Made by a program: the position numbers and the translations under genes
Shown: positions 5,152 to 49,570 of the stretch, one piece after another
Position numbering within the stretch: the first letter of the stretch is position 1
Layout: each line of letters begins with the position of its first letter
The notes under the pieces: generated by a model
What the model saw: only the letters and a program-made list of their open reading frames with translations
Database searches by the model: none
Told to the model about the DNA's origin: nothing
Source: Pristiophorus japonicus
Lineage: Eukaryota
DNA length: 64,000 nucleotides
Reading direction: 5' to 3'
Assembly: GCF_044704955.1 (NCBI RefSeq)
Contig: NW_027251843.1
Span: 310,001 to 374,000, forward strand

Positions 5152-5418
5152 TGTAAAGTCTTGACCCTGCAGTACAGACTTACATGAGGCACATGCTGAA
5201 GTCAAGGTTACTCTGGACCTGCACCTTTATTTCACAGCTCTCGAATGCCACACTTGCCTGAGACCTCCTTTATATACCTGTGTGGAACAGGTATGCAGTG
5301 TCTCCTGAAAGTGTACCCCTGGTGGTCAAGTATGCTTGTGGTTACAGGTTATATCTAGTTACAGTCATGTACAGCATGGTAAGATACAGTTATATACAGT
5401 AGTGTGAGATACATGACA
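5152..5418 (-). repeat. 5' LTR of Gypsy element
   Basis: TGTCATG...TTTACA on minus, AATAAA inside, followed by the PBS. Confidence 0.95.
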
Positions 5419-5423
5419 TAAAC

Positions 5424-6950
5424 CACCAGTCTCAGCTGGCCGTGCCGTTCCTGCAACAGCACTGTGCTCAGACTGTCCCTGCTGGCTGCCATCTCCAGGA
5501 AAAACTCTCTCCCCTGATCAATCGATCCTAGGGCCGGTGTGGTCTGCAGCCTTTCTTTGAGTTGTTTAAATGCTGCCTTGCAACCCTCGTCCCAATCCCA
5601 CTCCACTCCCTTGTGTAGGAGCTGGAGCAGAGGGGCTGCTGTGGCAGCATAATCCTCAATGAAGTCTCTGCAGTATCCTGTTAGCCCCAGAAAAGATCTC
5701 ACTCCCGTTACTGTGTTGGGGGTTGGTAATTCCTGTACTGCCTCCTTTCTAGCCTTGTCAATGGCTCTTTCCCCAGCACGCACCGTCAGTCCTAGGAATT
5801 TGACTTCCTTCTGGCCGATCTGCGCCTTCTTGGGGTTAACTTTAAAACCTGCCTCCCTAAGTAGCTCCAGCAGCTCAGCCAGCAGTGGGCCAAACTCCTC
5901 ACCCTCACCGGTGAATAGGAGCAGGTCGTCCACATACTAGACCAGCTGCCGGGGTCTGCTAAAACCCTTCAAGCAGTTAGCCATGCATTGATGAAAAATG
6001 CTGGGGCTGTTATGAAAACCCTGGGGCAGGCAGTTCCAAGTGTACTGTTGGCCTTTAAATGTAAAAGCGAACTTGTACTGGTCCTCCCTTCGCAAGGGAA
6101 TGGACCAAACCCGTTGGAAACATCCAGCACCGTGAAGGTGGTTGCGGATGCTGGAATACTTCCAATGAGGTCGGCAACAGCTGCGACCGTGGGTACACAG
6201 GTGGGGATATTACGGTTGAGTACCCGGTAATCCACCGTGGCTCTCAGGAATTGTCCGGTTTCTTAACCGGACACAGTGGAGAGTTCACATTGGTGGCTAT
6301 CGGTCTCAATAGCCTCTGTTTAACCAAAGAACTCATGGCCATTTCCATGTCTGCCTCTGCTTCCCTGGGGAAATTGTACTGCTTTTGTGGTCGGGTCATG
6401 GGGTCCCCACTCACACTGACCTCGACTCTGTTTAATCTCCGACAATCATGTTTGTGAGTGGCAAACGTGACGAGGTGTACTCGCACAACAGCCTGGTACT
6501 CCACTGGTGTGTTACTGACCAGTAGTTCAAGGTTGTAACCCTCCTTTGACTTCATTGTACACAGGGTCCCCTTTCCCTGTTTCTCTGGGATGACTGCTAC
6601 CTCACTTTCTTTACTGTTACAGGCTGCCCCCCACAGACAATGGTTTCTTAAATCCACGAGAACCCGGTGACCTATAATAAAGTAGGCACCAGGATTCCTT
6701 TTCCCTCCTGCTCCCACTTCATCAGGACACACGTCCACTTAGTGTGCAGTGTCACTAATTGAATGGACAGTGGGATGGAGAATGAGCCAGCCTGTTCATT
6801 GCCCATGAATCCCATTAGGCTGTACGGGGTCCCGTTTGATAGAGGTGAGGCTGTGGGGTCATCTGCATAGACTGTGGTGCATGATGCTCCAGTGTCCAGC
6901 AAATAAGTCCCCTTTACTCTCTCCACCTCCATCTCGACATACGATTGCAT
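5424..6950 (-). pseudogene. pol: Copy A protease and reverse transcriptase
   Basis: ORFs 6672..6950 (LLDTGAS), 6244..6738 (KQYNFP, NSPLCPVKKPD), 5969..6235, 5355..5933; in-frame TAG just before YVDD. Confidence 0.88.
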
Positions 6951-6993
6951 CGTACACTAGGGGACACAGGTAGACAGGCTGTGCTGGTTTTCG

Positions 6994-8794
6994 TCATAAA
7001 TCTGGGTGAGATGGGGCAGATGGTATCACTGCACCGGTGGCTGTGGCTACCTTCCCCGGACCCATTAGTGCGGTTCGGAGTACAGCCATCACGGTCTCAA
7101 ATGTTTGGGTAGAGACCGACGGCTCGGTCTTTTGGGCTGGGACTGTGGGATTCTTTCCTACCCTGTCCTTCCAGGGATTCCAACAGTCCTTCCTCCAATG
7201 CCCATTCTTCCCACACCCAAAGCAGTTACACTTGGTTTCGGAAGGGTTACCCCCTTCCTGGTGCCACTCTTTCTTTCCCTGACTGGGTTTTAACTCATGT
7301 ACCTTTCCCTTGGGTGGGTGCTCTTCCCCCCTGCAGTTCCGATATGCCATGGTCAGTTGCCTGATCACTGTTTCCTCGGTGGCGTGGGGTCCCTCGGGTC
7401 AAACCAAAGCTCTGCTCTGGCTTTGATCCGGGCCAGGCTATTCGCCACTATGCTCCGGAGCCATTGTGCCCGTTCGCCCGGTGTAAGGTTTGCCCGGTCG
7501 AGAGCCATACTGCAGGCTCGCTGATACACAGGCCACAGCCTGTCAGCGAAAGCCTGAGGGGTATCTCCCACAAGCTGCACTGTCCTCTCCACTCTGGAGA
7601 AGGGACTTCCCTCATTTAGACCCATGGTCTCCAGAACTTCATCCCGGACATCATCATATGTACCCCTGCCCTTTCTGCACGCCGCCAAAAGGGACTGGTA
7701 CAGCTTGCTGTCCAGGGAGAAAAGGAGCAGTTTTACCTGCTCTGAGTCATCACATCCGCTAATCTCGGCTGCCTGTTCCACTTCCATGAAGCGGACGGAG
7801 GGGCCTCCCTTATGTGTAAGCTTACTCAGGTGGCTTACCATAGCCCTCAACTGTTGGGTAGTGTGGGGAACCACGAATTGGCTCTCAAGAACCCCCGGTG
7901 CTCCACCCACAGGCGCGCTGAACTTTTGCTGCCGGACCGGACACATTGGTCCAGGCTTTCAGTTCTGGCTCACCCTTCTCTCCCTGCTGCCAAACTGAGT
8001 TAAACCCCGGCACCACAGGTGGTGGTGGTCCGTACTCCCTGCCTGCCTGAGCAATTGTCCCTTGTCCCTCCTTCCTGCTGCCCAACCGAGTTGTTCCCCG
8101 GCGCCACAGGGGGTGACTGAACAGTTTTCTCCTCCTCTTCCAGGTCTGCCCGGGTCGTACCCGGACTTATGAGGCACACCATGCCTCTTGCCCTGGACAG
8201 AGCGCGGTTTAAACTTTCAATTTGCTGCTGGCAGGGGCTGTGATCTCCCAACTCAAACCCCTTAGTGCTGGTTACTCTGTAGGCTGCCTGGATGTCTTTG
8301 ACGCTCTCCTCCTGCTCTTTCATTTGTCTATTAAGGCGAGTGTTCTCTTCTTGCAGTATCAATTCATTTTTCTTAGCCTCGGTGACCTGACACTGCACAT
8401 AATCCAACCTATTCCTGAACTTCTTCCCTGTGTAAAGCCTTTCCTCGTTGTGCTCATGTAACTCTCTCATTAACCTTTCCCCTATGATTGTTTGTGCACT
8501 AGACTGTTCCTCTGCCTCTTTCAGTTCAGCCATTAGTTTCTCTACTGTGGAATCTAAGAGTTGGACCTGTTTATGCAGACATACTAGCCAAATTGCCTTT
8601 TCCACTGCCTTTTTGTGAGTTTTTCCCTCTGTCCACTGGACTGCAGCGTCCCCTGGATGCTCAGCACGCAACAGATCGCGTACTCACTTCTTTGTTACAT
8701 TCACTCTTTTGACCACATAGGAAGCAATCCTCTCTTCTATTTTACTTCTTTTCTCACAACCAAAGTCTGTCTCCTCACATCACTTTTGCCACAT
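6994..8794 (-). pseudogene. gag: Copy A gag: N-terminal coiled coil, capsid with major homology region, single CCHC knuckle
   Basis: ORFs 8000..8671 (heptad-rich), 7365..7946 (QLVGDTPQAFADRL), 6994..7368 (CFGCGKNGHWRKDC); start codon uncertain. Confidence 0.82.
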
Positions 8795-9544: not shown

Positions 9545-12032
9545 TGGGAACCCTTCAATGATGAATCCGAAAAGGAGTTATGATTTAGAAGGATTAGTCG
9601 ATAATATTCTGGCCCAGTATCAAGGTATGTACGGCAGAATATGGATGCGTTTGCAATTCACAAGCACGATTGCGGGAGAGTATCTAGGGTAGAGGTGAAG
9701 ATAGATGGGGATTCGATGACACGACCCCAGAAACAGTATAATTTTCCCCGGGAAGTAGAAAGGGATTTGGAAACTGCTATAAATTCCCTGGTGGATCAAG
9801 GTGTGTTGAGGACCACAGCCACACATGTAAACTCACCCCTATGGCCAGTAAAGAAGCCCGATAACTCATGGAGGGCCACGGTAGATGACCGAATCCTGAA
9901 TAAAAATATTCCAGCCTGTGCGCCCACGGTAGCAGTGGTAGCGGATTTGATCGGGAGTATCCCTGCGGCCACAACAACTTTCACAGTGCTGGACATTTCA
10001 AATGGGTTTTGGTCCATTCCCCTGAGACGGGAGGACCAGTATAAATCTACCTTTACCTTTAAAGGTCAGCAGTATACGTGGACATGTCTTCCACAAGGGT
10101 TTCACAACAGTCCCTCGATCTTCCACCAAAGTATGGCCGAGGCATTAAACAGTTTTAGTCAGCCAGATCGGTTGGTCCAATATGTGGACGACCTGTTGTT
10201 ATTCTCCGAAAGTGCGGAGGACCACGGGCCATTATTGAGTGAATTACTGCATTTGTTGAAAGAAGCAGGTTTTAAAGTAAATCCCCAGAAAGCTCAAATA
10301 GGCAAAGAGGAGGTGCAGTTTCCAGGTTTGACCATTGGGGCAGGAGAAAGGGCCATAGATGGAGCTAAGAGAAAGACAGTCCAGGAACTACCTGTTCCTA
10401 AGGACGTGTCTGGAGTAAGGTCTTTCCTGGGAATAACGGGTTACTGCAGGGAATTCATAGAGGGATATATAACCATGGCAGCTCCTTTGTTGAGGCTTCT
10501 TAGGAAAGGAGTAGAGTGGGAATGGAGTGAGAGTTGTCAGGAAACTTTCATTTGGTTAAAAGCGGTGTTACAGACAGCACCAGCATCGGGAGCAGTAAAT
10601 GGGGACCAGGACTTTAGTCTGGAGGTAGCAGCGACTGGGGACAGTTTGAGTGCAGTGTTACTCCAGGAGCGACACAGCAAGCTGAGACCGGTGGCCTACG
10701 TCTCCCGAGTTCTCACCGAAGTAGAAAAGAGTTTTTTCAAATTGCAAACGACATCTATTTGCAACTTTTTGAGCAGTAAAGCATTTTCGGTCGCTCACAG
10801 GGTTAGCTACAGTAACTTTACTGACCTGTCACACCACGACACAATTGTTACTGGATGGTAGAATGAAAGATGGGACAGTGAGCAGTAACAGGATTGCCCG
10901 CTGGACATTGTTGCTGACTCAGTTAGACCTGAAGGTCGAGAGGCCAGGAGAACCAAAGCTAGCCCCGAACTTGGTTTATCCGGGGGCAGCTCATGTGTGT
11001 TCAGTGGAAGGAGTGTGGGATGTAGATGTGAGATTCTGAGCAGGAGAACACCCGACAGGTAGGGACATCTATGTAGATGGGTCTAGTTCAGTAATAAACA
11101 GAGAGAGAAAGACAAGCTGTGGGATTTACAATCCAGAGGCAGTGATAGAGAAAGCCATAAAATCCCCAACACTTTGAGTATGCAGCAGACCGAGCTAGCA
11201 GCGGTAGCGTATGTAGTCACACACCCGAACGAATTCCCAACTCCCTATACGATATGTTCAGACTCCATGTTCATTTCTAACTGCTGTACAGAGTATTTAG
11301 CCATATTGGCGAGGCGAGGGTTTAAGTCCTCTGACGGAAATCCGTTGGTGTTGACTCCATTGTTAAAAGTCATTTTGGACGTCACGGGTTGGGACCAGAA
11401 GGATTACTACATCCAAAAGGTCAAAGCACAATCTAAGACAGAGCCCAAGTGGGAAGGGAATGAGAAAGCAGACACACTGGCTAAAACAGGGGCAGGAGAA
11501 GGGACACCTTGGGACCCATATCACTGTGGACAGATCACGGCTGTAACAGGCAGAGAGAGGCCCAAAGAAGTCCCATTGTCGCCTGATTTAAAACAGGCTC
11601 AGCTACAGGATGCAGACCTTAGAGCAGCGATTAGGGACAAGATAGATGGGAAGCATGTTGCGGGACCTTTGGGAGCTGCAGACATAGAAGTAAAGCAAGG
11701 AATGTTGTTCAAGGGAGATAGTTGGATCGTGCCAGGACAGTGCAGGGAAGAATTCTTGCAGCTGGTGCATGTGGGTCCAGGAGCTGGACATCCAGGGCCA
11801 GAAACAATGTGGAATAAAGTAGAAGCTGTGGGATGGTGGCCCGGGCTTAGAAGTGATGTCAGGGATTATTGCCAGAATTGTCTGGTATGTGCCACAAACA
11901 ATCCACACCCCCACCGAGGAAGGCTCCGTTGGGACACACGAGGAGTGTAGAGGGGTCATGGCAGTCTATACAGATAGATTTCATTGGGCCACTGTCCACC
12001 TCAGGCAGATGCAATAAATATTCCTTGGTGTT
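9545..12032 (+). pseudogene. pol: Copy B pol: RT, RNase H-like tether, second RNase H, integrase N-terminus
   Basis: ORF 9641..10861 (WTCLPQGFHNSPSIFHQ, YVDD); IYVDGSS at ~11067; ORF 11174..11950 (ELAAV, ICSDS, GNEKADTLAK, H-H-C-C zinc finger); QIDFIGPL then cut by Gypsy LTR. Confidence 0.9.
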
Positions 12033-13231
12033 TGTTATTATTAATGCTTGGAGGTCACCAGACACCAGAGGGCGCCGCGGTCAGAGTTGTACACATGTGG
12101 CAGGTATGCTTGGTCACCTGTATATAAGCTGTGTGTCTTTGTCACGCAGGCACTCTTGGGCTGGAATAAAGACGGATCAGGTTGCACCTGAATGAGTTTA
12201 CAGTAACCAGACTCTTGAGTCATTACAATTGGCGACGAGGTAATTTAAGAACCTTCGCATGCACAATGGGCACTGTTGGAATTTCGGAGAGATTTGTGGA
12301 GGGCGAGGAGTGGGCAGATTTTGGCGACCGCCTGGATCAGTATTTTGTGGCCAACCGCATGGAGGCAGAGGCCTCCACAGTTAAGCACAGGGCAGTTCTC
12401 CTCACCCTTTGTGGTCCGAAAATCTTCTCTCATGAAGAATCTTCTCTCGCCTGTACGTCAGGCGGAAAAAGGGTACGAGGAATTGTGTACGTTGGTGGGT
12501 GACCATCTGAAGCCAAAAGAGGGGATCATCATATCACGCTACCGTTTGTACACGCATGTTCGTGTTGAGGGCCAGGTCGTGTCGGGATTTGTCGCCAACC
12601 TGCGATGTCTTGCTGAGCCGTGTAAGTTTGGGAACTTGCTGGAAGACATGCTGCATGATGTCTTCATGATAGTTATCTGCCATGATGTGATCCTCAGGAA
12701 GCTGTTAGCTGCAGAGACGCTGGATTTGAAAAAGGCCATCGCGACTGCCCAGGCATGCATGACAACGGATGATAATCTGAGGCAGATATCATCGAAGAGT
12801 GGGAGTTCCACGGCAAGTACTGTAAACAAGATGGCGTCGCCTTTGGGCAGAGCTGCTTACGCAAAATGTGCTGCTGCTCAGAGACCGGCAACAGGTTCGA
12901 ACCAGATTTTACCCTGTTGGCGTTGTGGGGGCAATCATTGGCCTCATCAGTGTCGGTTTAGACAATACTGATGCAATGGATGTTCGAAAGTGGGGCATTT
13001 TCACAGGATGTGTCCACAACGGTGCAAGCGTGGTGCGGCTCACTACGTGGTTGATGAGGACCAGTTCAGTGATGGCCCGGATACACAACCTGATGTGGAA
13101 GTGAATGGACTGTATTCTGTGCAAGAGATAGATGATAGTCATTAACGTGAAGCTGAATAGCATGCCTGTATCAATGGAGCTGGACACGGGTGTGAGCCAG
13201 TCGATAATGAGCCAATGGACATTCGACAAGC

Positions 13232-14690
13232 TGTAAGGGGTGGTTTGCAGGGGGTCAGCTATCCCTTCTGACCTTATATGAGCGGTTCCGAATCGCTCCC
13301 ACACCCTTGGTTCTCGACACTGGAATTATGAAGGGACTGTGACAGACTTGGACAGACAATCGGTTTCAAGGTAGGAAGCAGGTATGACTTTATTGTGTTG
13401 AAAAAAGAAGTAAAAGGCACACCTTTAATAACACACACAGACCAATACACACTGAAGGGTACAACACATTGAATAAAATGTCAAATTACAGCCTGTGGGG
13501 AAAAGAATACAGCTTAAACTCTAAATGGGGTAAAGAGGAGAACGCAGATACATTTACACAAGTTATCCCAGCCTCCCCACTCCCAATTCCCCTAACTAAC
13601 TAAGTTATAGCTCTGAGGGTTCAGGGGCCATGCTCACCAATCCCTTTAGACAGTTGCTGGTGAATCGCGGTTTCGGGGTTCGCTACACTTGGCCTTCTAG
13701 GCGAGCCGTACCCCGGACGGAGGAGAGGACTTCGGACTGCGTAGTCTTCAGTTGGGGTGCATCCGTTGATGCGGTAAGTTGCGTTTTGGATGTATGGGGT
13801 AAGTACCCACTTTCTTTGGTTAGGAATAGTTTTAGTTAGTCCCTTTTGGTAATTTCTCCCCCGTTGGGTCGTTCAGAAGTAGATTGTAGAGCGGTTGTCA
13901 ATTTGCTTGCTGACAACCTTCCGTTTCGTGGGCCTCGTGCTCGGTCAGTTCCTGATCAGTTCTGGTAGTTTCCTTCACTATTCCATTTCTTCACTGTAGA
14001 GCAAGCAGGCTGCTTGTTTGTGTTTGTGTTCCAGTCTGTGCGAGTTCCAGTCTGTGTTCTGCTTCTCTCCTGTGTTCTGCTAGTTTCTGTGTTCTGCTAG
14101 ACTTTCTTTGTAAAACTGGGGGATAAATATATACCCCAAAAAAAGGCTCCGTTATCTCCCATCAAATCTCTTGGGCTCTGTTTAAACTGTTCTGTCCATT
14201 GATTTTCAAATGTCTCCTTTATCAGCAGTAACTCGATTAGGGTGTGAGAATGTGCTATCACTGGTTTTGCATTGTTTTAGGATTGTCCAGTTTCTTGACC
14301 ATGATTTCCATTGTGCTTGATTGGGTAATTCGATTATCTCTTAGAGGGTGAACAGCCTGGGGTCCTTAATGCACGAATTTGGCCCCACCTCCTGTATTTG
14401 GTAACTCTTTCTCGCAGCCAAAATGTTGTAGAATATTAAAATTGATATGCTCCTTCCCATAGATGTTTAGGGGATCTCAAGCTTCTGTAATTTAGGTTCA
14501 TTTTGAATTCCCTTTCCTATGAGTCCAAACACTGGGTGGGGTGGGGGGGGTCTGCATGAATGCATTCCCTTTTATCCCCCGCAGGTTCCGTCTGCCCCTT
14601 TAAACTCATTTTAAAAGCCCAGAAAGGGATTCTTCTCCTCTGTAGGGGAAAGGTACCTGGAATCTTTGCGAGATTTTGGTAAATTCTACA
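13232..14690 (-). mobile_element. Solo LTR (1459 bp), related to the copy A LTR
   Basis: TG...CA ends, 4-bp TSD AAGC (13228-13231, 14691-14694), minus AATAAA 13389-13394, TATA-like ~14125-14133. Confidence 0.88.
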
Positions 14691-14731
14691 AAGCTGTGGG
14701 ACACTAAGGCTATGAAACCGAAGCTGAGTCT

Positions 14732-16245
14732 TGTAGCAGGTGCAAAATTCACAACAACCCTCCCCCCCCCGCCCCCGAGTGTTTGGGCTCATTCGAAAGG
14801 AAAGTTAATTTGGGACTATCTACCGAAAGTTTGGAACCCTAAAGTGCTTATTGAAGAAACTACGAACTTTAATAGAATTTTGGATTTTAAAAGACAAATT
14901 CAAGGCTGTAGGTGGACCTAAAGAACTAACAGGAGACAGTCTAACTAAGTGGAGCTACCTGGGTGTGAGGACTAAGTTAACCTGTCTGGAGGGATGAGTA
15001 TTCAAAAATCCTTCCCCCACAAGAAACATTAATGTCACAAAATCACCCAGAAGTAGCTACCGATCAACATGGGTCTGGACAACCATTTCAGCATATACAT
15101 CACAAAGAGACTCAATCCAGCCAGTATGCGAAAGAATAAGCACAAAAGGACATTGCAATTAACAAACTAATATTTCCATCAGGAAACAGTTTTCGAACAT
15201 CAACTCACCCAAAACATATCAACTTTTAATGAGCCCACCAAAATATTACAAAGGTGAACCAAGCCCGCCAAAATTACACAAAGGATTTTAAACAGGTTTT
15301 GTGCCAAGATTAGAAACACTGAAATCATATAACTGGCCCCTGTTTTCAACAGAGGGTATGACACACTTTGCTATACAACCGAGACCAAGTTGTTGTCATC
15401 AAGACAAAGAGAGAAACCAAAGTGACAGTTGTAAACTGACTTCTCCAGCCTTGAAGTCCTGAAGTCCTGAAGGCAGGAAGAACATCACCATCGCGGCAGC
15501 AACCAACCACAGTCAACGTGGTATCAACGGAAAACCACCGCGATCGACCAAACTCGAACAAAACTCCAACGAGGAAAAACTGAAGAATTGAAAAAGTTTC
15601 CACTCTACAATCTAATCCTGACCTACCAACGGGTAAAACATTACCTAAAAGACTGTAGAAACCTATTTCTAATGAAGAAAACCAGGTACTTACCACATAG
15701 ATCCAAAACACACCTTACCGCATCAGCGGACTCAACCCAACTGAAGATTGCACAGCTAGAAGTCTTCTCTGTCATTCGGGGTATGGCAAGCAGAACCTAC
15801 CACATCCAGTGAACCCCAAAACTGTGATCTACCGTTAACTGTCCAAAAGGATTGGTCAGCATAGTCCCTGCCTGCCCTGGAGTCCAACCTAGCTAGGCTT
15901 AGGTATTGGGAGGTGGGAGGTATCATTTTACTGCAACCACCTTTGAATGTGTAGTGTATGGTACTTTATTAGATTGTTTATAAGTACCTTGTACTTTTCC
16001 TTGTATTGTCCTTTATTAGAGTGATTGTAAGTTTGGCCTTGTATTTTCTTACTAGAGTAATAAGCTTGTATAACCTTGACTGTAATAAAACCAAAGTTTC
16101 TTTTTGCATCAAACCAGTGTCCTTTGCACTTTTGACACCCTCCCCAAATAAATCCAGAGTACAGAACCCAAGGGGGTGGGAGCGATTCGAACTGCTCAAG
16201 TTGGTCAGAAGGGAGCCTGACCCCCTCATAGAGAACACCTTTACA
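14732..16245 (+). mobile_element. Solo LTR (1514 bp), related family, opposite orientation
   Basis: TGTAG...TTACA, TSD GTCT/GTCC (14728-14731, 16246-16249), AATAAA 16084-16089; its 3' 100 bp resembles the reverse complement of 13232-13340. Confidence 0.88.
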
Positions 16246-17934
16246 GTCCAGTCAATGCCAGATTGCATACTTACACTAAGGAACTCATACCGGTGCTCGG
16301 CAATGCAGCAATCGAGATGTCATATGACATTGTGGTACACGAGCTACCATTATGGATCACCCCAGGTAATGGTCCAACTGTTCGGCAGGAATTGGCTCGA
16401 GAAAATCAAGCTGAACTGGAATGTTGTCAAGATGTTACCCTTGGTGGATGATACTTCATGTGCTCAAGTATTGAAAAAATGTCCTTCTTTGTTTGAACTG
16501 GGCATTGGTAATTTTATGGGAACCAAGGTGCAGATTCACCTGGACTCCAATGCAAGGCCTGTCTATCACAAAGCTTGGTCTGTTCCATACACGTTGAGGG
16601 AGAAGGTTGAAATTGAGCTTGACAGACTCCAGCATGAAGGGATCATATCACTGGTCAAGTTTAACGAGTGGGCTAGTCCCATTGTTCCTGTGTTGAAGTG
16701 TGATGGCACTGTCAGGATTTTTGGAGACGACAAGGTTGCAATTAACCGGTTTTTGAAACAGGATCAGTATCCATTACCGATGGCTGATGACCTGTTCGCC
16801 ATGTTAGCTGGTGGAAAGTCGTTCACAAAACTGGAACTGACATCGGCCTATATGACCCAGGTGCTTGTCAATACTTTGAAGAAACTCACCTGCATGAACA
16901 CCCATAAAGGACTGTTCATCTACCACAGGTGTCCTTTTGGGATTCGTTTGGCTGCAGCCATATTTCAGAGGAGTATGGAGAGTTTACTGAAGTCCATTCC
17001 TAGAGCTGTCATGTTTCAAGATGACATTCTGGTCACAAGTCACGACACTGCTGAACATCTGAACAATCTTGAAGAAGTCCTACAGCATCTCGACAAAGTG
17101 GGACTCAGGCTGAAACGATCGAAGTGTGTATTCATGGCACCTGAAGTCGAATTTCTCGGGAGGAAGATTACTGCTAGTAGCATTAGGCCCACTGATTTGA
17201 AAACCAAGGCCATCAAAAATGCACCCAGGCCTCAAAATGTGACGGAGCTGCATTCATTCCTTGGGCTACTCAACTACTTTGGCAATTTCTTACCCAGATT
17301 GATCACTTTACTCGGGCCACCGCATGTGTTACTAAGAAAAGGCGACAACTGGGCCTAGGGTGTGTCTCAAGATAGAGCCTTTGAGAAAGCCAAAAATCTG
17401 CTATGTTCAAACAAGTTGCTTGTTCATTATGATCTGTGTGAGCCTCTTGTATTGGTCTGTGATGCTTCATCACATGGGGTTGGCAGTGTACTCCAACAAA
17501 CAAATGAATCGGGCAAACTACAACCTGTTGCATATGCTTTGAGAAGTCTGTCTAAAGCGATAGAAGGCTTACAGTATGGTAGAGAAAGAAGCTTTGGCCT
17601 GTGTGTATGATGTTAAAAAAATGCACCAGTACCTGTTTAGTCTTCGTTTTAAACTAGAAACGGATCACAAGCCACTCATTTCATTGTTTGCGGAAAACAA
17701 AGGTATTAATACCAATGCATCACCCGCATTCAAAGGTGGGCGCTGACATTGTCTGCCTATGATTTTGTCATCCATCATAGACCTGACACTGAGAATTGTG
17801 CCGCTGCACTGAGTCGTCTGCCTTTGCCCACACCTGAGGTGGAGATGCCTCAACCTGCAGATCTACTGTTAGTAATGGATGCTTTTGAGAGTGAAGGGAC
17901 TCTGCTCAACAAGTCAGGATCTGGACCAGCCATC

Positions 17935-18447
17935 TGGACAGGGAGACTAATGAGGACCTCGACCCATATCCTAGCACCAGTCCTGACCGAAACGCAGGTT
18001 AAAGAGGTCACACGGGACAGGTTTGTCAGATCTGTATGGTACTCTGAAGGGGCTGCATTGGGAAGAAGCTCACAATATGGGCAGGCAGCACCAGCAGGAT
18101 AAACTGCTGTGGAACCCCGGGTTACACAGGAATGGAGGGTAGGGGATCAGGTAATGGTCAGGAATTATACCAGAATAGGGGCATTTGAACCACTGTACAA
18201 AGGACCATATAGCATTGTAGACAAGGCAAGCCCTATGGTGTACACGATCCAGTTGCCAAAACATATCAAATGGTTCCATATAAACCAGTGTAAGCTGTAC
18301 AACCCCGGAGAGAAAAGTAAAAAGCGGGCGAAGGCCCCAGGAACAATAATGAGTTTGATCAGTGTAAGCCTCCCACCAATACTGTGGGATGATGAGGATG
18401 GAGAAGTAAGGGACGGAGCAGTAAGGTGGAGTGGTCAGGTACTGTGA
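17935..18447 (+). pseudogene. pol: Retroviral integrase C-terminus (GPY/F module), probably copy B
   Basis: TGRLMRTSTHILAPVL...WRVGDQVMVRNY...EPLYKGPYSIV...WFHINQCKLY. Confidence 0.85.
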
Positions 18448-18635
18448 CCTAGCGTGCCCTGGACACCTCCTCCATCTCCACCCCCGAGCCTCTGTAAGCC
18501 CAAGCATTGGGATAAAAGGAGAGGGAAGCAGTGATTGTAAAAAGGAGTTATGTACATTTGTGAATAACTGAAGGAGGACCTGTGAGGGGGAGGCCCCCCA
18601 GAGCAAAGGTATTTCTTTCATTTTTGTCTTTATAG

Positions 18636-20025
18636 GAGCGAATCGAGCCAAGGGTACGAGAGGAGGTGGACATTGTGGATAGGCCTGTGGATGGCCATTA
18701 TTATTAAAGGATTGGGAGATCGGGGAGACACCGAGACATTCCTTACACACGGGTGTATGGGAGGAACCAGCCCCACTGTAACTCAAGGGGGAGCCATACG
18801 GAGTAACAAGGGCACAAACACCTCTGCTCACACTGGGAGCTGGCCAGGGTGGTTAGGGTCAAATTCGACCAAGTACTCCAGACAAACCGAAGGTAAACTT
18901 GGGGAGGTGTCAGTGTCCTGCCCCAAGCTAAACATCACGACCAGGAATGTACGGGTGAGAGAGGGGAGACGAGTTTGTCTGGAATGTAAAGGGATTACCC
19001 CCATGGGAGGGTGGTGGTGGTTACAGAAAACAGGCAGGGGAAAAGTTAATGCATCGACAGAATGGGAGAAACTGGGTAATAACTCAAACAGGCGGAGCAC
19101 AGGAACAAGAAAAGGGGAAAAATTGTGTTGGGAAAAGTGGTGGAAGGCGGAACAAGGGATTTATGTCTGTGTGGTTGGATCTAGCCACAAGTGCAGGGGA
19201 GGTGTGGCGATTGTTTTTAAATGACAATGGCAGGATTCTGGGTCAGGAATGAATTGGACGCAGGGTTTATTTTCTTGTGTGACCTTGAACCCGCCAAAAA
19301 CAGTCAATGCAACCGAGCTGATCGCGAGCAGATTAAAACCTCTCCCTAAAATGCTGGAGATTCCAATCCAAGAAATTCCATGTCCTGTCCTAAAACCCGG
19401 GCCTAAGAACGGGCTGGTGTTAATCCCAACAGGGAAAATGTTGTATCATACTGTGTATTATGAAGTAGTGTCGGTTATTCTAAATTTTAACAGAGTTACA
19501 AATACCCCGGTGGTGTCCGCCAGAACCAGAAAAGTTACATAAGCGTTTGTTAAAAGAAATATTTAAGCAATTCTATCAGAAGAATTATGGGGACAAAAGT
19601 TAGGTGGAAGCAGACAAACCAATAAGCAACAGCCAGACGGGTTGGGGGAGGCAAAAAAGGGGACTGATGAATGATGTGGGTACGGCATTTAATACAGGTA
19701 CATCGCGCAGTTGAAAGTCCAAGTAAACACCTTCAGGGACTAGTTAAAGAAGTTACTGGAGGAGGGTAGTGACATAGAGGGTAACGAATTACAGGAGGAC
19801 CAGGCAATGACAATCCATTTGAAGGAGATGATAGCTGAGGTGGAGACACACACTCAGACCATCAATGCTTTAATCAAGGAGGGTAGAAACGCGTCAGATC
19901 AAGCTGCTCAGAATGACGGGTGTGTCATGTACTGAGCTTAGTTGCTAAATTAAGGATGCAGTAATTTAGAGGATTTAAAACAAGGCCACGTACCGTCGTG
20001 GGTCAGTGACAAGCATCGAAAGGCT
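18636..20025 (+). pseudogene. env: env: signal peptide, Ig-like domain, class I fusion protein ectodomain (furin site, fusion peptide, heptad repeat); TM portion missing
   Basis: ORFs 18673..19224 and 19249..19542 share a frame across one TGA; +1 slip at 19485-19488; RQKR at 19649-19660 then GLMNDVGTAFNTGTS; many N-glycosylation sequons; splice acceptor at 18612-18635. Confidence 0.78.
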
Positions 20026-20029
20026 TTGA

Positions 20030-20686
20030 GTGTCTATAACAACAGGTTGATACAATCAAGCAATGGAGCCCATGGATTAATTGGCCAGAGGGGAAAATCA
20101 GTCCCTCTGGAGATTCCAAGCCTGTGAAAACCCAGGACATCAAAGGATCCCACAAGGCGTGCATTCTTGGATAACGGGGCACAAAAGATAAGGAGTTATC
20201 TTTTGCCCTGTCGATTCTGTGTGTGAATTGTGGCCATCCGACTAGATCCAGACCCATCATCACAGCCATCGAGACTCAACCAGATGCATTAACTGAAAGG
20301 CAGCCCAGCAGGAGATGTGTAGAATTGAATGGATATTGAATGGATATATCTGTAAGAGCTGAGAACAAGAGCTCAGAGAGAGGAACAACAGGTCGAAGAA
20401 ACACCTCAGACCAGCAGGTCAATGAACAACGGCCACGAAGCAGCAGCGGGGACCCAACACCTTCCCTCGCTCTAAGAGCCGACAATCGACAACAGCAACA
20501 GCAGGCTGGATGGGTGATTGTATGTCTTCGGTCAATCTCTAAGAAGTCTTGTTCCGTACTTTTTAGGGTTTTTTTGTGTAATAAACAAACAGTTGGATTT
20601 TATTCTAAACTTTGCTTTATGTGTGGTACTTCCTGTAATTCCCGAGGTCTATGAATCAGAGTAGAGTGGGAAACCAACACCCTACA
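20030..20686 (+). repeat. 5'-truncated LTR, possibly the 3' LTR of copy B; same family as 48201-49015
   Basis: Long near-identical match to the reverse complement of ~48201-48840; AATAAA at ~20580; ends CCTACA. Confidence 0.8.
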
Positions 20687-22604
20687 CCACATGAGGTCAT
20701 CACCGGGAGGGTTATGTGCACCCAACCCATGTGTTGGTGCCAGTCCTCACAGAAGCTCAGGTCAGGGAGGTAAACCGGGACAGGTTGGTCCAGAATCTGT
20801 TTGAGGTTTTAAAACAGATTCACTGGCAGGCAGCCAGTAACCTGGGGAGCCAGCACCGGGAAACATTGGTTGTTGCTCGAGTCCCGGAGAAGCCACGAGT
20901 GGAAGGTGGGAGACCAGGTAATGTTCAGGAACTGTGCCCGAGTGGGGGCATTCGAGCCACTGTACATGGGGCCTTATAACATCGTAGATAAGGCCAGCCC
21001 CATGGTATATGCAGTCAGACTCCCGAACCGCACAAAATGCTGTCACATCAACCAGTGTAAGTTGTTTAACCCCAAGGGGGTGACGACAAAGGCAAAGAGA
21101 AACCAGGGCACAATAATGAGCCTGGTGGACGCGGGTCTTCCTCCCATGGTGTAGGACGATGATGATGACCCAGATGGCGGGACAGTAAGGAGAAACAGTC
21201 GGATACCACGGCTTAGGGCGCTGTGGACACCTCCTTACTCACCGGCCGCGAGCCGCAAGATTTTAACTGGGGGCACTCGATAACGCAGAACGAACGGAAT
21301 ATATATGTAAATAACGAAAGCCCAACCTGTGGAGGGAAAAACCGCTCACAAAATGGTTGTGCTGTATCTGTCTTAATCAGGAAATCAGAAGAAACGGGAG
21401 CCCGGGTGTAATTGATCAGTTATGGACCCACAATGCACCTCCCGCAGCAGAAGATGACGGAATTCCAGATATTTCCGGTTTTGGTGACAAAATATCATCA
21501 GGGGGATTGTAGCACCAGCTTTCTGGCCATTTCTATCAACAATATTTTAAATCCTTAAATCCAAATCCCCAAGAAAGATCTGTACTGTTTGGCGAGCTTG
21601 TCGGGGTGACACTGAGGTGCATTCATATTCAACCGGATATTTCACACTGACAGGCTGGGTGGCAGGGAACCCAGGCCCATTGATGTCATCACCATCTAAA
21701 GTGATTCCTGGGAACAATATCCCGAGAGGTAACTCAGAGACACTGTGCCTTTGCATTATTAAAGCACAGTCACCACTCAGTCCCAACCCAAACTGGTGCA
21801 AGGCAGGAAATGGCCGGCCCATTGTCTTCCAGGAGATAAGCCGGTTAAGCAAGATCGGTTTGTGATCGAAACCCATTACGGGCTAATGGGGGCCATCAAC
21901 TCAGGAAACGACAGACATCCAGTAATCAGCACCCATTGTCTCTCCAGACGCAAGGCCTGGGAGCGGGAAAACAAAACATCATTTTTCACAAAGATTTCAA
22001 AGACTACGAGCCATTCCAGGCCACAGGGTGGGGAGTCCAGACAGATCACTGGAGTCAATCCATCGGTCAGTATTGGTGGGAGGAAAGGTGATGGGTTTTG
22101 GGGATATAAGGAGCCACTTTGCAACAAGCTCCAGCTCAGGAAGAAGAAAGCTCCGGAAAAAGCCCAGGAAAAAGCTCAGGAAAAATCGCAGGAAAAAGTC
22201 CAGGAGGGAGACGTTCAGGAAGAAGCTGCAAGCAAGACAACGGGCAATCAGGGTGAGCATATTGCCTGCGCCTACACATCCACAAGACCACTTAGCTGTG
22301 TGAGGGGGTGATTGTAAGTCCCAACCAAACCCAAGGGGTTTAGTGCTGGGGGGATCCTGTGTTAGTTTATTTCACGGCAGTGTTCATTTATTAAGCCGTG
22401 GTAACTTAGCACGGCACGGCTTATTGGACAAGCCAGGGTTGTACTGTTTTGCACTGTTTATGAGTGGTGTTGTTAATATTATTAAACACTAATACGGTTC
22501 AGCCCAAAAAATGTGTGTCCGAGTCTGATCTGTCCATATAATCCTATCGTCCAGAACTTGTAGTAGGAGGTGCGTTTTTGGTACGCCCGAGAAAACCACC
22601 TATA
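20687..22604 (+). mobile_element. Retrovirus-like copy C: integrase C-terminus, ~1.1 kb unassigned region, PPT and short putative 3' LTR
   Basis: ORFs 20716..20979 and 20870..21154 are paralogous to 17935-18447; purine tract GAGGGGGTGAT then TGTAAG at 22313; ATTAAA 22481-22486; ends aaaccacctata like the other LTR ends. Confidence 0.65.
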
Positions 22605-23150
22605 GGCAACCTCTCAGTACTGCCCCTCCGACAGTGCAGCGCTCCCTCAGTACTGCCCCTCGGACAGTGCAGCACTCCCTCAGTACTGCCCGTCTGACAG
22701 TGTAGCATTCCCTCAATACTGCCCCTCTGACAATGCGGCACTCCCTCGGTACTGCCCTTCCAACAGTGCGGCAATCCCTCAGTACTGCCCCTCCGACAGT
22801 GTGGCACTCCCTCAGTACTGCCCCTCCGACAGTGCAGCACTCCCTCAGTACTGCCCCTCTGACAGTTCAGCACTCCCTCAGTATTGCCCGTCTGACAGTG
22901 TAGCATTCACTCAATACTGCCAATCTGACAATGTGGCACTCCCTCAGTACTGCACCTCTGACAGTGCAGCACTCCCTCAGTATTGCCCCTCTAACATTGC
23001 AGCACTCCCTCAGTATTGCACCTGTGACAGTGCAGCACTCCCTCAGTATTGCCCCTCTGACAAAGTGGCACTCCCTCAGTACTGCACCTCTGACAGTGCA
23101 GCACCCCCTCAGTACTGCCCCTCTGACAGTGCAGCACTCCCTCAGGACTG
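22605..23150. repeat. 33-bp minisatellite derived from SINE body
   Basis: ~16 copies of ctccctcagtactgcccctccgacagtgcagca; the unit also appears once inside SINEs at ~25365-25395 and ~37470-37500. Confidence 0.9.
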
Positions 23151-23869
23151 CACAGTAGTGTATCTCTTTAGTTTGCATTCAGGTCCCTGGAGTGGGGCTT
23201 GAACCCACGATAAAATATTGCATCACTGGATGCCGCACAGTCTGAGCTGTGAGTCATATCCCGACCTCAGTTGGAACTGCTAACTCAGAACAAACAACAA
23301 CAGCAACTTTTATACAGCACCTTTAACACAGTAAAACTCCCCGAGCGCTTTACAGGAGACTTATAGAATAAAGATTGACAGTGAGCCACGTCAGGAGACA
23401 TTGAAAATTGCAGCTCAGTCAAATTGTGAGGGAAATTGGCAGTGCTGTCTTCATACCAAAAGGGGGCGATGTTGCTTCTGAGAAGACCAAATTTTTTGAC
23501 AATTTCTGTGTCACTCAATTGATTGGTTTGTAAAACCCGTTTGTTCCAAACCTCCAGTCAGGTTTGCAGAATCATTTCCAGTTCCCCACGTGTCATTTGA
23601 TGGTGGATCTCAGCGTGTATCTCCTCGTCCGCTCGTGAGGCGGTGTCTCAGACCGATTGGCCAGTCAGCAGCCACTCCGCACTGCAGCGAGCATTGGCAG
23701 GCCATTCCACTGTGGGAGGCCTCACTGCGGAGCTCGGTGCACGGGGTATATCCACACAGAGACGCTCTGCCACCAGGTACAGCAGCAACAACCTGCATTG
23801 CTATAGCAACTGGAACTTTAGAGCAACATCCCGAGGCAGCTGACAGAGGCGTAATCTGGTCAAAGTGGT

Positions 23870-47884: not shown

Positions 47885-49570
47885 CTTCGAACCCCACACC
47901 CTCTCTATTGCATCGGCCTCTTATTTCCATCTCCAACATTGCCCATCTCCACCCTACATCAGCCCCTTGATGGAAGAAACCCTTAGCTGAGCTTGTCTCA
48001 TCGCCACATTCAATTATTCCGATGTCCCCTCCCAGCTTCCTTCATCCACTCTCCATAAAACCCAACTTTCCAAAATGCAGTGTCCATACCCTGCCTCACA
48101 CCAAGTGCTGTTCCAATATGACCCCTGACCTCACTGACCTACTACCCCTGACCTCACTGACCTACTACCCCTGACCTCACTGACCTACTACCCCTGACCT
48201 TGTAGGTTGTTGGTTTCCCACTCTTCTCTGATTCATGAACCTCGGGAATTACGGGAAAGACTCCACGTAATGCAAAGTTTAGGCTTAACCCAACTGTTTG
48301 TTTATTACACAAAAACCAAATAAACATTACGCAGCAAGACTTCTTAGAGATTGACCGAAGACATACAATCGCCCTTCCAGCCAGTTGCTGCTGTTGTCGA
48401 TTGTCGGCTCGTGGAGCGAGGGAAGGTGTTGGGTCCCCGCTGCTGCTTCGTGGCCGTTGTTCATAGATATTCTGGTCTGAGGTGTTTCTTCGACCTGTTG
48501 TTCCTCTCTCTGAGTTCTTGTTCTCAGCTCTTACAGATATATCCATTCGATTATACACATCTCCTGCTGGGCTGCCTTTCAATTAATGCAACTGGTTGAG
48601 TCTCGATGGCTGTGATGATGGGTCTGGATATGTTCGGATGGCCACAATTCACACACAGAATCGACAGGGCAAAAGATAACTCCTTATCTTTTGTGCCCCG
48701 TTATCCAAAAATGCACACCTTGTGGGATCCTTTGTTAGCCTGGGTTTTCGCAGACATGGAGTCTCCAGAGGGAACTGGTTTTCCCCTCCGGCTAATTATT
48801 CCATGGGCTCCTCTGCTTGATTGTATCAAACCCTTTGTCTCGATGTTAATCGGGTCTCGTTCCTGACCCCAGGAATCGCACTAATCAGTTATCAGTCACC
48901 ACCTGCCCCTGGCTGGCAATCTTTCTCCCGCCCAACAGTCCCAAAGGTTTCTTTTAAACCATTTCAGTCTGTGGCCTCTTGCTGAGCCTCGATCATGAAA
49001 TGTGTAAACCTTACAACTTCACTGACCTACTACCCCTGACCTTTGACCTACTACCCCTGACCTCACTGACCTACGGCTACTGACCTCACTAACCTACTGC
49101 CACTGACCTACTACCCCAGACCGAATACCTCTCACCCTTGACCTCACTGACCTTCTCCCCATAACCTCACTGACCTACACTGCCTCCCTCAACCCCCAAC
49201 ACATCAAGTTTGAAAGCCTTGTCTCCGATTCCCTCCATGGCCTCTCTCCACCGTACCTCTGTGTCCTGCTGAGCTACACCCCACCCCCACCCCCGCCCCG
49301 GGCCCTTCGGTCTCCTCACTCCAGCCTCTTACCCATCGCTGCTTCGTGCATCCCACTGTTGATGGGCGGAGTCTTCAGACACCTCGTCCCCGATCTCTGA
49401 ACTCCCGGTTTTAATCCCGCCTCCTCTCCAGCTCTCTCTCCTCCATCAAACGCCATCCTTTCACCCAGGCCTTTAATCACCCTTCCTAAAGCCTCCCCAA
49501 CCCCCGCTCCCCCAGTTCTTACAGCAGCGATGTGAAGCGTCTTGAGAGCTTTGGCACATTAAAGGCACCC
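47885..49570 (+). mobile_element. Old L2 LINE 3' fragment with an internal 23-bp tandem expansion (48120-49180) and a solo LTR
   Basis: Degenerate similarity to 31290-31700 (tccctccatggcc, ttaaaggc tail); unit cccctgacctcactgacctacta. Confidence 0.6.
48201..49015 (-). mobile_element. Solo LTR (815 bp)
   Basis: TG...CA ends, 4-bp TSD ACCT/ACTT (48197-48200, 49016-49019), matches 20030-20686. Confidence 0.88.

Follow-up and report, generated by a model that had tools for sequence, protein, structure and literature searches.

What kind of envelope protein (Env) was encoded by the broken env gene at positions 18,636 to 20,025 of the sawshark DNA considered here, and what is the immunoglobulin (Ig)-like segment at its front? 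The stretch analysed, called the window throughout, comprises 64,000 nucleotides of Pristiophorus japonicus (contig NW_027251843.1, positions 310,001 to 374,000). The locus is a dead, deleted env copy of a high-copy endogenous retrovirus (ERV) family, most likely of snakehead-retrovirus-like, class III-type affinity, and the window copy taken alone is an ordinary dead copy. In the family, Env is one chain in which an Ig-like domain has a linker on either side and is followed by an F2-like chain. The reading favoured here, with a probability of about 0.62, is that of an Env of F type (after the paramyxovirus fusion protein F) which carries the Ig-like domain in a modular front slot, most likely as an attachment head and probably derived from an old cellular Ig-superfamily (IgSF) domain. 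The env features of the window copy are the following:

18611..18635, plus strand: polypyrimidine tract followed by AG (18634-18635), a probable env splice acceptor
18673..18717, plus strand: hydrophobic, signal-peptide-like stretch; Met at 18691 is found in 49 of the 53 copies that align
18718..18918, plus strand: G/T/S-rich linker with two N-glycosylation sequons, the modelled part being of low confidence and without secondary structure
18919..19221, plus strand: probable Ig-like domain (Cys105 B-strand, Trp116 C-strand, Cys166 F-strand), from Pfam, PDB, profile and AlphaFold evidence
19222..19224, plus strand: premature TGA stop of the window copy; 13 of the 55 dispersed copies that align here have a stop too
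19225..19648, plus strand: linker and F2-like chain, the latter starting at PGPKNGLVL (19396-19422), with a frame break near 19485-19490 and a stop at 19601
19649..19660, plus strand: furin-type cleavage site RQKR, R-x-[KR]-R in 40 of 66 copies
19661..20043, plus strand: truncated fusion peptide, heptad region and first part of the F1-like head, with a second frame break and four stops, ending at a 1.3 kb deletion

The family was sampled within its own 5.9 Gb genome, where the env segment has at least 150 copies (the best 150 of 7,141 candidates were scored); a search with the fusion subunit only likewise scored the best 150 of 13,467 candidates. Copy set A holds the 40 best-ranked dispersed copies, chosen by the Ig segment and leaving out a local duplicated cluster, while set B holds 30 copies chosen by the fusion subunit alone, 4 of which overlap set A, giving 66 copies in total. 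Natural copies and a skate protein agree on one order: signal peptide, linker, Ig-like domain, linker, F2-like chain, furin site, fusion peptide and heptads, F1-like head and membrane anchor. The skate gene model has this domain order with 43% identity over 346 amino acids and all six cysteines of the segment, and sawshark and whale shark gene models also match the Ig segment. Linkage of the Ig segment to env is frequent rather than universal, with 17 of the 30 fusion-selected copies covering at least 80% of it and a further 5 showing separate partial losses; the remaining 8 are weighed below.

The original prediction described the part behind the Ig segment as a class I fusogen, a layout that is borne out and can be refined, since the fusion part is likely of F type rather than of the surface/transmembrane subunit (SU/TM) type of orthoretroviruses. 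Signal peptide, RxKR, fusion peptide, heptad region and C-terminal anchor are all present in the family, the anchor being missing in the window copy. The PGP-x-x-G-x-x-L motif that opens the F2-like chain is common to lokiretrovirus Env, as are later F1 motifs, the likeness of the two fusion parts being judged by eye only. Lokiretrovirus Env has in turn been linked to paramyxovirus and pneumovirus F (PF00523, E=2.2e-7; Wang and Han, PMC7947760). As the fusogen thus resembles that of lokiretroviruses, foamy viruses and paramyxoviruses, the Ig segment sits before the F2-like chain. The assignment is indirect, direct searches for F having been negative. A gamma-type Env with the receptor-binding domain (RBD) known as RBD-C (CXXC in SU, immunosuppressive domain and CX6CC in TM) was rejected, since Pfam scans of copies and homologs gave no match to TLV_coat or to any other retroviral Env family. 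F proteins have an Ig-type fold of their own, domain II; it is located after the fusion peptide and is therefore not the env Ig segment.

In front of this fusogen the N-terminal slot is modular, being empty, Ig-like or occupied by another cysteine-rich domain. It is empty in all 12 lokiretrovirus Envs with a visible start, among 23 listed, where the F2-like chain follows directly after the signal peptide (PMC7947760). A sister ERV lineage of the same genome, with at least 150 copies, has an F part about 30% alike in 12 of 12 loci (L101-L112), yet the Ig segment was matched in none of these and a different cysteine-rich domain, with no match in the PDB, stands there in all 12. This sister type also occurs in Mustelus and Pristiophorus gene models and looks younger than the Ig-bearing family, its matched stretch being less often interrupted by stops.

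Ig-like traits are seen in the N-terminal domain of more distant Envs, which come from a bamboo shark and from two frogs. UniRef gives the bamboo-shark relative the automatic name Ig-like domain-containing, and residues 68-145 of this protein are weak matches to antibody V domains; in the ESM Atlas it found one chordate cluster at 0.82, to be taken as a lead only. Pairwise z-scores against the family domain reach 4.5-5.3 for one frog protein, which also has the motif, and range from -0.4 to 3.2 for the other frog protein and the bamboo-shark protein, while the Mantella protein gave no Ig match in the PDB. When a family profile (A2) was aligned by hhalign with the frog and bamboo-shark proteins, the F part aligned and the N-terminal domains did not, so common descent of the latter with the family's domain is not shown. 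The evidence fits one ancient Ig gain and several alike. Sharing between shark and skate need not date the domain either, because ERVs related to snakehead retrovirus (SnRV) form a clade, Huo, with frequent host switching (PMC6001957). A wider proposal is put forward tentatively, at somewhat less than even odds: SnRV-like retroviruses of cartilaginous fishes and frogs would have an F-type Env whose exchangeable attachment slot has been loaded with cellular IgSF domains more than once. Two frog observations stand beside this. One Mantella species has 16 near-identical Env-like gene models of the lineage (cluster P0028), pointing to a recent expansion. The frog pol gene model P0048, picked by its reverse transcriptase (RT) alone, has a signal peptide and a sub-threshold, V-type-looking Ig domain without canonical cysteines after the integrase (residues ~1190-1300), which may be an env start with an independent Ig gain or a neighbouring host exon.

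How such an Env would work can be outlined from its layout. The env mRNA would be produced by splicing, the AG at 18634-18635, kept in 55 of 66 dispersed copies (7 unaligned, 4 other), being the putative acceptor; splicing in SnRV is complex. Furin would then cleave Env, leaving the Ig-like domain on the F2 side as an attachment head. Its partner on the cell surface may be an IgSF protein or, given the basic charge of the segment (21 K/R versus 7 D/E), glycans. A single-protein F machine would thereby gain its own receptor binding, much as the inserted RBD provides it in foamy virus Env, and the F core would then drive fusion. The attachment role is suggested by the position of the domain, its exchange between lineages and the precedents of the gamma-type and foamy RBDs.

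These precedents are alike only in part. The gamma RBD-C and an IgV RBD derived from SIRP are Ig-fold modules on the Env front, exchanged between lineages as in the present family (Hotzel, bioRxiv 10.1101/2024.03.17.585361, preprint). They sit, however, on SU/TM of gamma or alpha type in amniotes, whereas the carrier here is F-like; and the SIRP-like RBD, with its canonical B-F disulfide plus one extra disulfide, has a donor that was found by BLAST (bioRxiv 10.1101/2024.03.17.585361), while none was detected for the present domain. Foamy virus Env also combines an F-like core with an RBD of its own, but this is a large insert of novel fold within SU (residues 217-543) rather than an N-terminal Ig domain (PMC11468914). 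In crocodilian ERV4, likewise an ERV outside classes I and II with IgSF domains, the place of env is taken by a whole host nectin3 mRNA, with about 76% identity to the host protein and no fusion to a fusogen (PMC4299795). Zebrafish Env38, of gamma type, is unrelated (PMC10072453).

The domain might instead be structural or shielding, capping or stabilising the prefusion trimer or masking it as self-like, with receptor binding left to the F head; this is unlikely, though it survives better than the other alternatives. The lokiretrovirus Env has no such domain, in the sequences available, so that an F core presumably works alone, sequons flank and cover the Ig-like domain, and the two extra cysteine pairs (Cys 83, 102, 152 and 174, all conserved beside Cys105 and Cys166) suggest a rigid module. 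Yet the sister lineage has a different domain in the same place, as receptor-binding modules behave in gamma-type Env, and the Ig-like domain hangs between two low-complexity linkers.

Whether the segment has an Ig fold at all was judged from motif, profile and model together. The V/I-set signature of the IgSF consists of a B-strand Cys, a C-strand Trp and an F-strand G-x-Y-x-C, the cysteines being 55-75 residues apart. As originally reported, the window copy has Cys105 (18985), Trp116 (19018) and Cys166 (19168) with 60 residues between the cysteines; Cys, Trp and G-x-Y-x-C come in canonical order and are also kept in skate. The domain of about 100 residues is uninterrupted in the window, and the three residues are kept in 36, 38 and 39 of the 40 copies of set A, counts that are biased by selection on the same segment. 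A single-sequence Pfam scan gave Ig_3 at 18.5 bits (E=0.003), and no Ig profile passed the curated cut-off of 30 bits in the window, copies or homologs, the best reaching 19. Against the PDB, the single sequence matched T-cell receptor alpha best (E=0.01), all 19 matches being Ig V domains. A profile of divergent sequences placed 59 of its 60 best PDB matches in the IgSF, all at profile positions 29-149 and led by contactin-1 (2.3e-4), scattered over many IgSF families. AlphaFold returned a seven-strand, all-beta model of low confidence, for which Foldseek listed shark VNAR first (E=0.061), with 30 of 43 listed rows IgSF by title; the same model had no match at E<=0.001 in BFVD, and the natural 476-residue frame no usable match in the ESM Atlas. 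Weak Pfam matches to Toxin_cobra-type, Triabin and other families were sub-threshold and were rejected. The Ig fold predicted at the outset is accordingly probable and not proven: motif, divergent-profile signal and all-beta model speak for it, while the Pfam scores stay under the cut-off, the narrower profile A2 matched nothing in the PDB and both the model and its best structural match are weak.

The further claim, that the virus had captured the module from a host gene, found no support, since no cellular IgSF protein was among 27 matches in 1.84 billion proteins, and a search of longer proteins with the open reading frame (ORF) of the Ig segment scored none of 374 candidates. A closest host donor could not be named, the profile matches being spread over many IgSF families. 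Capture from the host is thus plausible but unproven; the domain probably descends from an old cellular IgSF domain too diverged for its donor to be recognised. The receptor-binding or immune-decoy role that the original prediction gave the module is putative as well.

Several results weigh against an Ig-fronted F-type Env. Neither PF00523 nor any solved F protein was matched in direct sequence searches of copies and homologs, and the narrower profile A2 had no PDB match at E<=1. In addition, 8 of the 30 fusion-selected copies (L074, L076, L082, L083, L087, L088, L093, L096) have one common deletion junction (18661/19122), at which the signal peptide and most of the Ig segment are lost. In all 8 the integrase end is missing from its place just upstream, and 7 of the 8 have in common a different upstream sequence not found in the window. 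They are read as a defective derivative and not as a working Ig-less Env.

The sub-threshold scores, the absence of A2 matches, the best Foldseek E-value of 0.061 and the lack of a donor would equally suit a beta-sandwich evolved in the virus, with no host capture and a mere resemblance to the Ig signature. This is improbable, as the B-strand Cys, C-strand Trp and F-strand G-x-Y-x-C stand in canonical order and are kept in skate, and the IgSF came out on top in three different searches.

That the chain was one gene follows from its reading frame. The two ORFs noticed originally, 18673-19221 and 19225-19539, lie in one frame split by the TGA at 19222-19224, and three observations join them: in two natural copies a single open frame spans both the Ig segment and the furin site (476 and 345 amino acids), 42 of the 55 dispersed copies that align do not have the stop, and skate has the same layout. 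The N-terminus is hydrophobic as predicted, its most hydrophobic 11-mer beginning at residue 1. The frame break near 19485-19490, the one stop (19601) before RQKR at 19649-19660, the GLMNDVG...NTGTS stretch at 19661-19705 and LEDLKQGHVPSWV at 19966-20004 are likewise present, and the window spacing at 19450-19520 is unlike that of 53 of 66 copies. Damage goes beyond what had been reported, with a second frame break and short loss just after 19705, stops at 19741, 19933, 19939 and 19951, and about 1.3 kb absent at 20043/20047 relative to other copies; owing to this last loss the membrane-anchor end is missing, and the skate anchor segment, matched in 25 of 40 copies, has no counterpart in the window. 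Among the 300 best-scored rows of the two genome searches no whole env of the family was seen, the longest open frame being 591 of about 770 amino acids expected. Among RNA runs none was listed as containing the element, a result that says nothing about expression. Between the window and the 40 copies, differences in the Ig segment by codon position are 0.056/0.114/0.128, a slight third-position excess that is expected when mostly neutral decay is measured and was not used as evidence. A functional stop, yielding a secreted Ig decoy and a separate fusogen, is very improbable and largely refuted already: the TGA does recur, with 13 cases among the 55 dispersed copies and 22 among the 26 of the local duplicated cluster, but the other 42 dispersed copies and skate have an open frame at this point, stops recur at other codons as well (e.g. 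18970 in 8 of 53 copies), the cluster arose by duplication of a few old insertions (its copies being 90-100% alike), and what follows the stop lacks a signal peptide and is broken too. Two sawshark gene models, P0007 and P0010, fuse env pieces to Niban-like and zinc-finger genes; they are probably annotation chimeras and possibly real exonisation.

The pol gene contains RT, tether, RNase H and integrase by Pfam, tether and RNase H being common to all Retroviridae. Searched against the PDB, the RT finds foamy and gamma RT (1e-49) far above Ty3 (1e-33), and a search of viral contigs with it found nothing. Its motifs LDISNGFWSI, LPQGFH-x-SP-x-IFHQ and QYVDD match the SnRV row by eye, and a hand count over ~241 positions of the alignment in the supplement of Wang and Han (PMC7947760) gives ~108 identities to SnRV (~45%) versus ~85 to lokiretrovirus (~35%). 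In an RT tree that included no labelled SnRV or lokiretrovirus row, its neighbours were pols of coelacanth and frog, with Gypsy standing apart. The pol thus looks snakehead-retrovirus-like, judging from RT alone, and membership in the lokiretroviruses was rejected on the same motifs and count. The likeness to SnRV, clade Huo and class III-type ERVs lies in pol, by RT motifs compared by eye (PMC6001957, PMC4422223, PMC12193657); SnRV-related ERVs are known in elephant shark (PMC4422223). With lokiretroviruses the family has in common signal peptide, RxKR, fusion peptide, coiled coil, membrane anchor and PGP-x-x-G-x-x-L opening, besides Pol tether and RNase H, while it differs in its N-terminal domain and its RT; the lokiretrovirus survey lists no cartilaginous host, with 3 Orectolobiformes screened and 0 found (PMC7947760).

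The original prediction also held the architecture to be undescribed. An Ig domain at the Env front is already known from gamma/alpha-type Envs (bioRxiv 10.1101/2024.03.17.585361), so the novelty narrows to its combination with an F-type Env, which is apparently undescribed: no description was found in the literature searched, most subscription journals lying outside it. F-like Envs are known in lokiretroviruses, foamy viruses and errantiviruses, and tie retroviruses to paramyxoviruses; the present family would extend the F type to an SnRV-like pol. One F-like core whose slot is empty, Ig-filled or otherwise filled offers a natural experiment on how a fusogen comes to bind receptors. Should the slot be exchangeable as proposed, attachment and fusion in one chain would be a third design beside foamy Env and the paramyxovirus pair H and F, and whatever the Ig-like domain binds would be the first receptor for this deep lineage of retroviruses.

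The rest of the provirus is laid out around env as follows:

9605..12035, plus strand: broken pol of the same provirus, with RT, tether (degenerate RNase H), RNase H and integrase zinc finger (Pfam RVT_1, RT_RNaseH_2, RNase_H, Integrase_H2C2)
12036..17936, strand not assigned: later insertion or insertions, including Gypsy-type gag and RT (Gypsy-like ORFs), splitting the integrase; copies join 12032-12035 directly to 17937
17937..18447, plus strand: C-terminal part of the integrase (Pfam SH3_Tf2-1, MLVIN_C and Integrase_p58_C, all under cut-off; tblastn to pol P0045)
20047..20686, plus strand: 3' part of the element behind env, where copies differ more from one another, matching dispersed copies about 1.3 kb further along

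The pol at 9605-12035 is assigned to the same element as env because its sequence lies upstream of env in 29 of the 40 dispersed env copies, whereas the RT at 16507-17358, inside the later insertion, falls outside the ERV group in the tree. The 20047..20686 region is repeated inverted at 48201-48829 with 89% identity.

The window segment 17410-20721 is duplicated at 99-100% in five other places, contigs C8, C53, C113 and C1231 of the same genome being involved, and C8 has a cluster of 90-96% copies at 143-149 Mb; the duplicates and the cluster are segmental duplications of old insertions. Elsewhere in the window, the minus strand at 5355-8683 holds a broken and interrupted gag-pro-pol of a related ERV (55-78% to pol P0045). 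Positions 20687-21900 contain a second integrase C-terminus (~70% to the first) and then a broken ORF matching no Env query, and a 33-bp minisatellite of about 22 units lies at 22540-23265.
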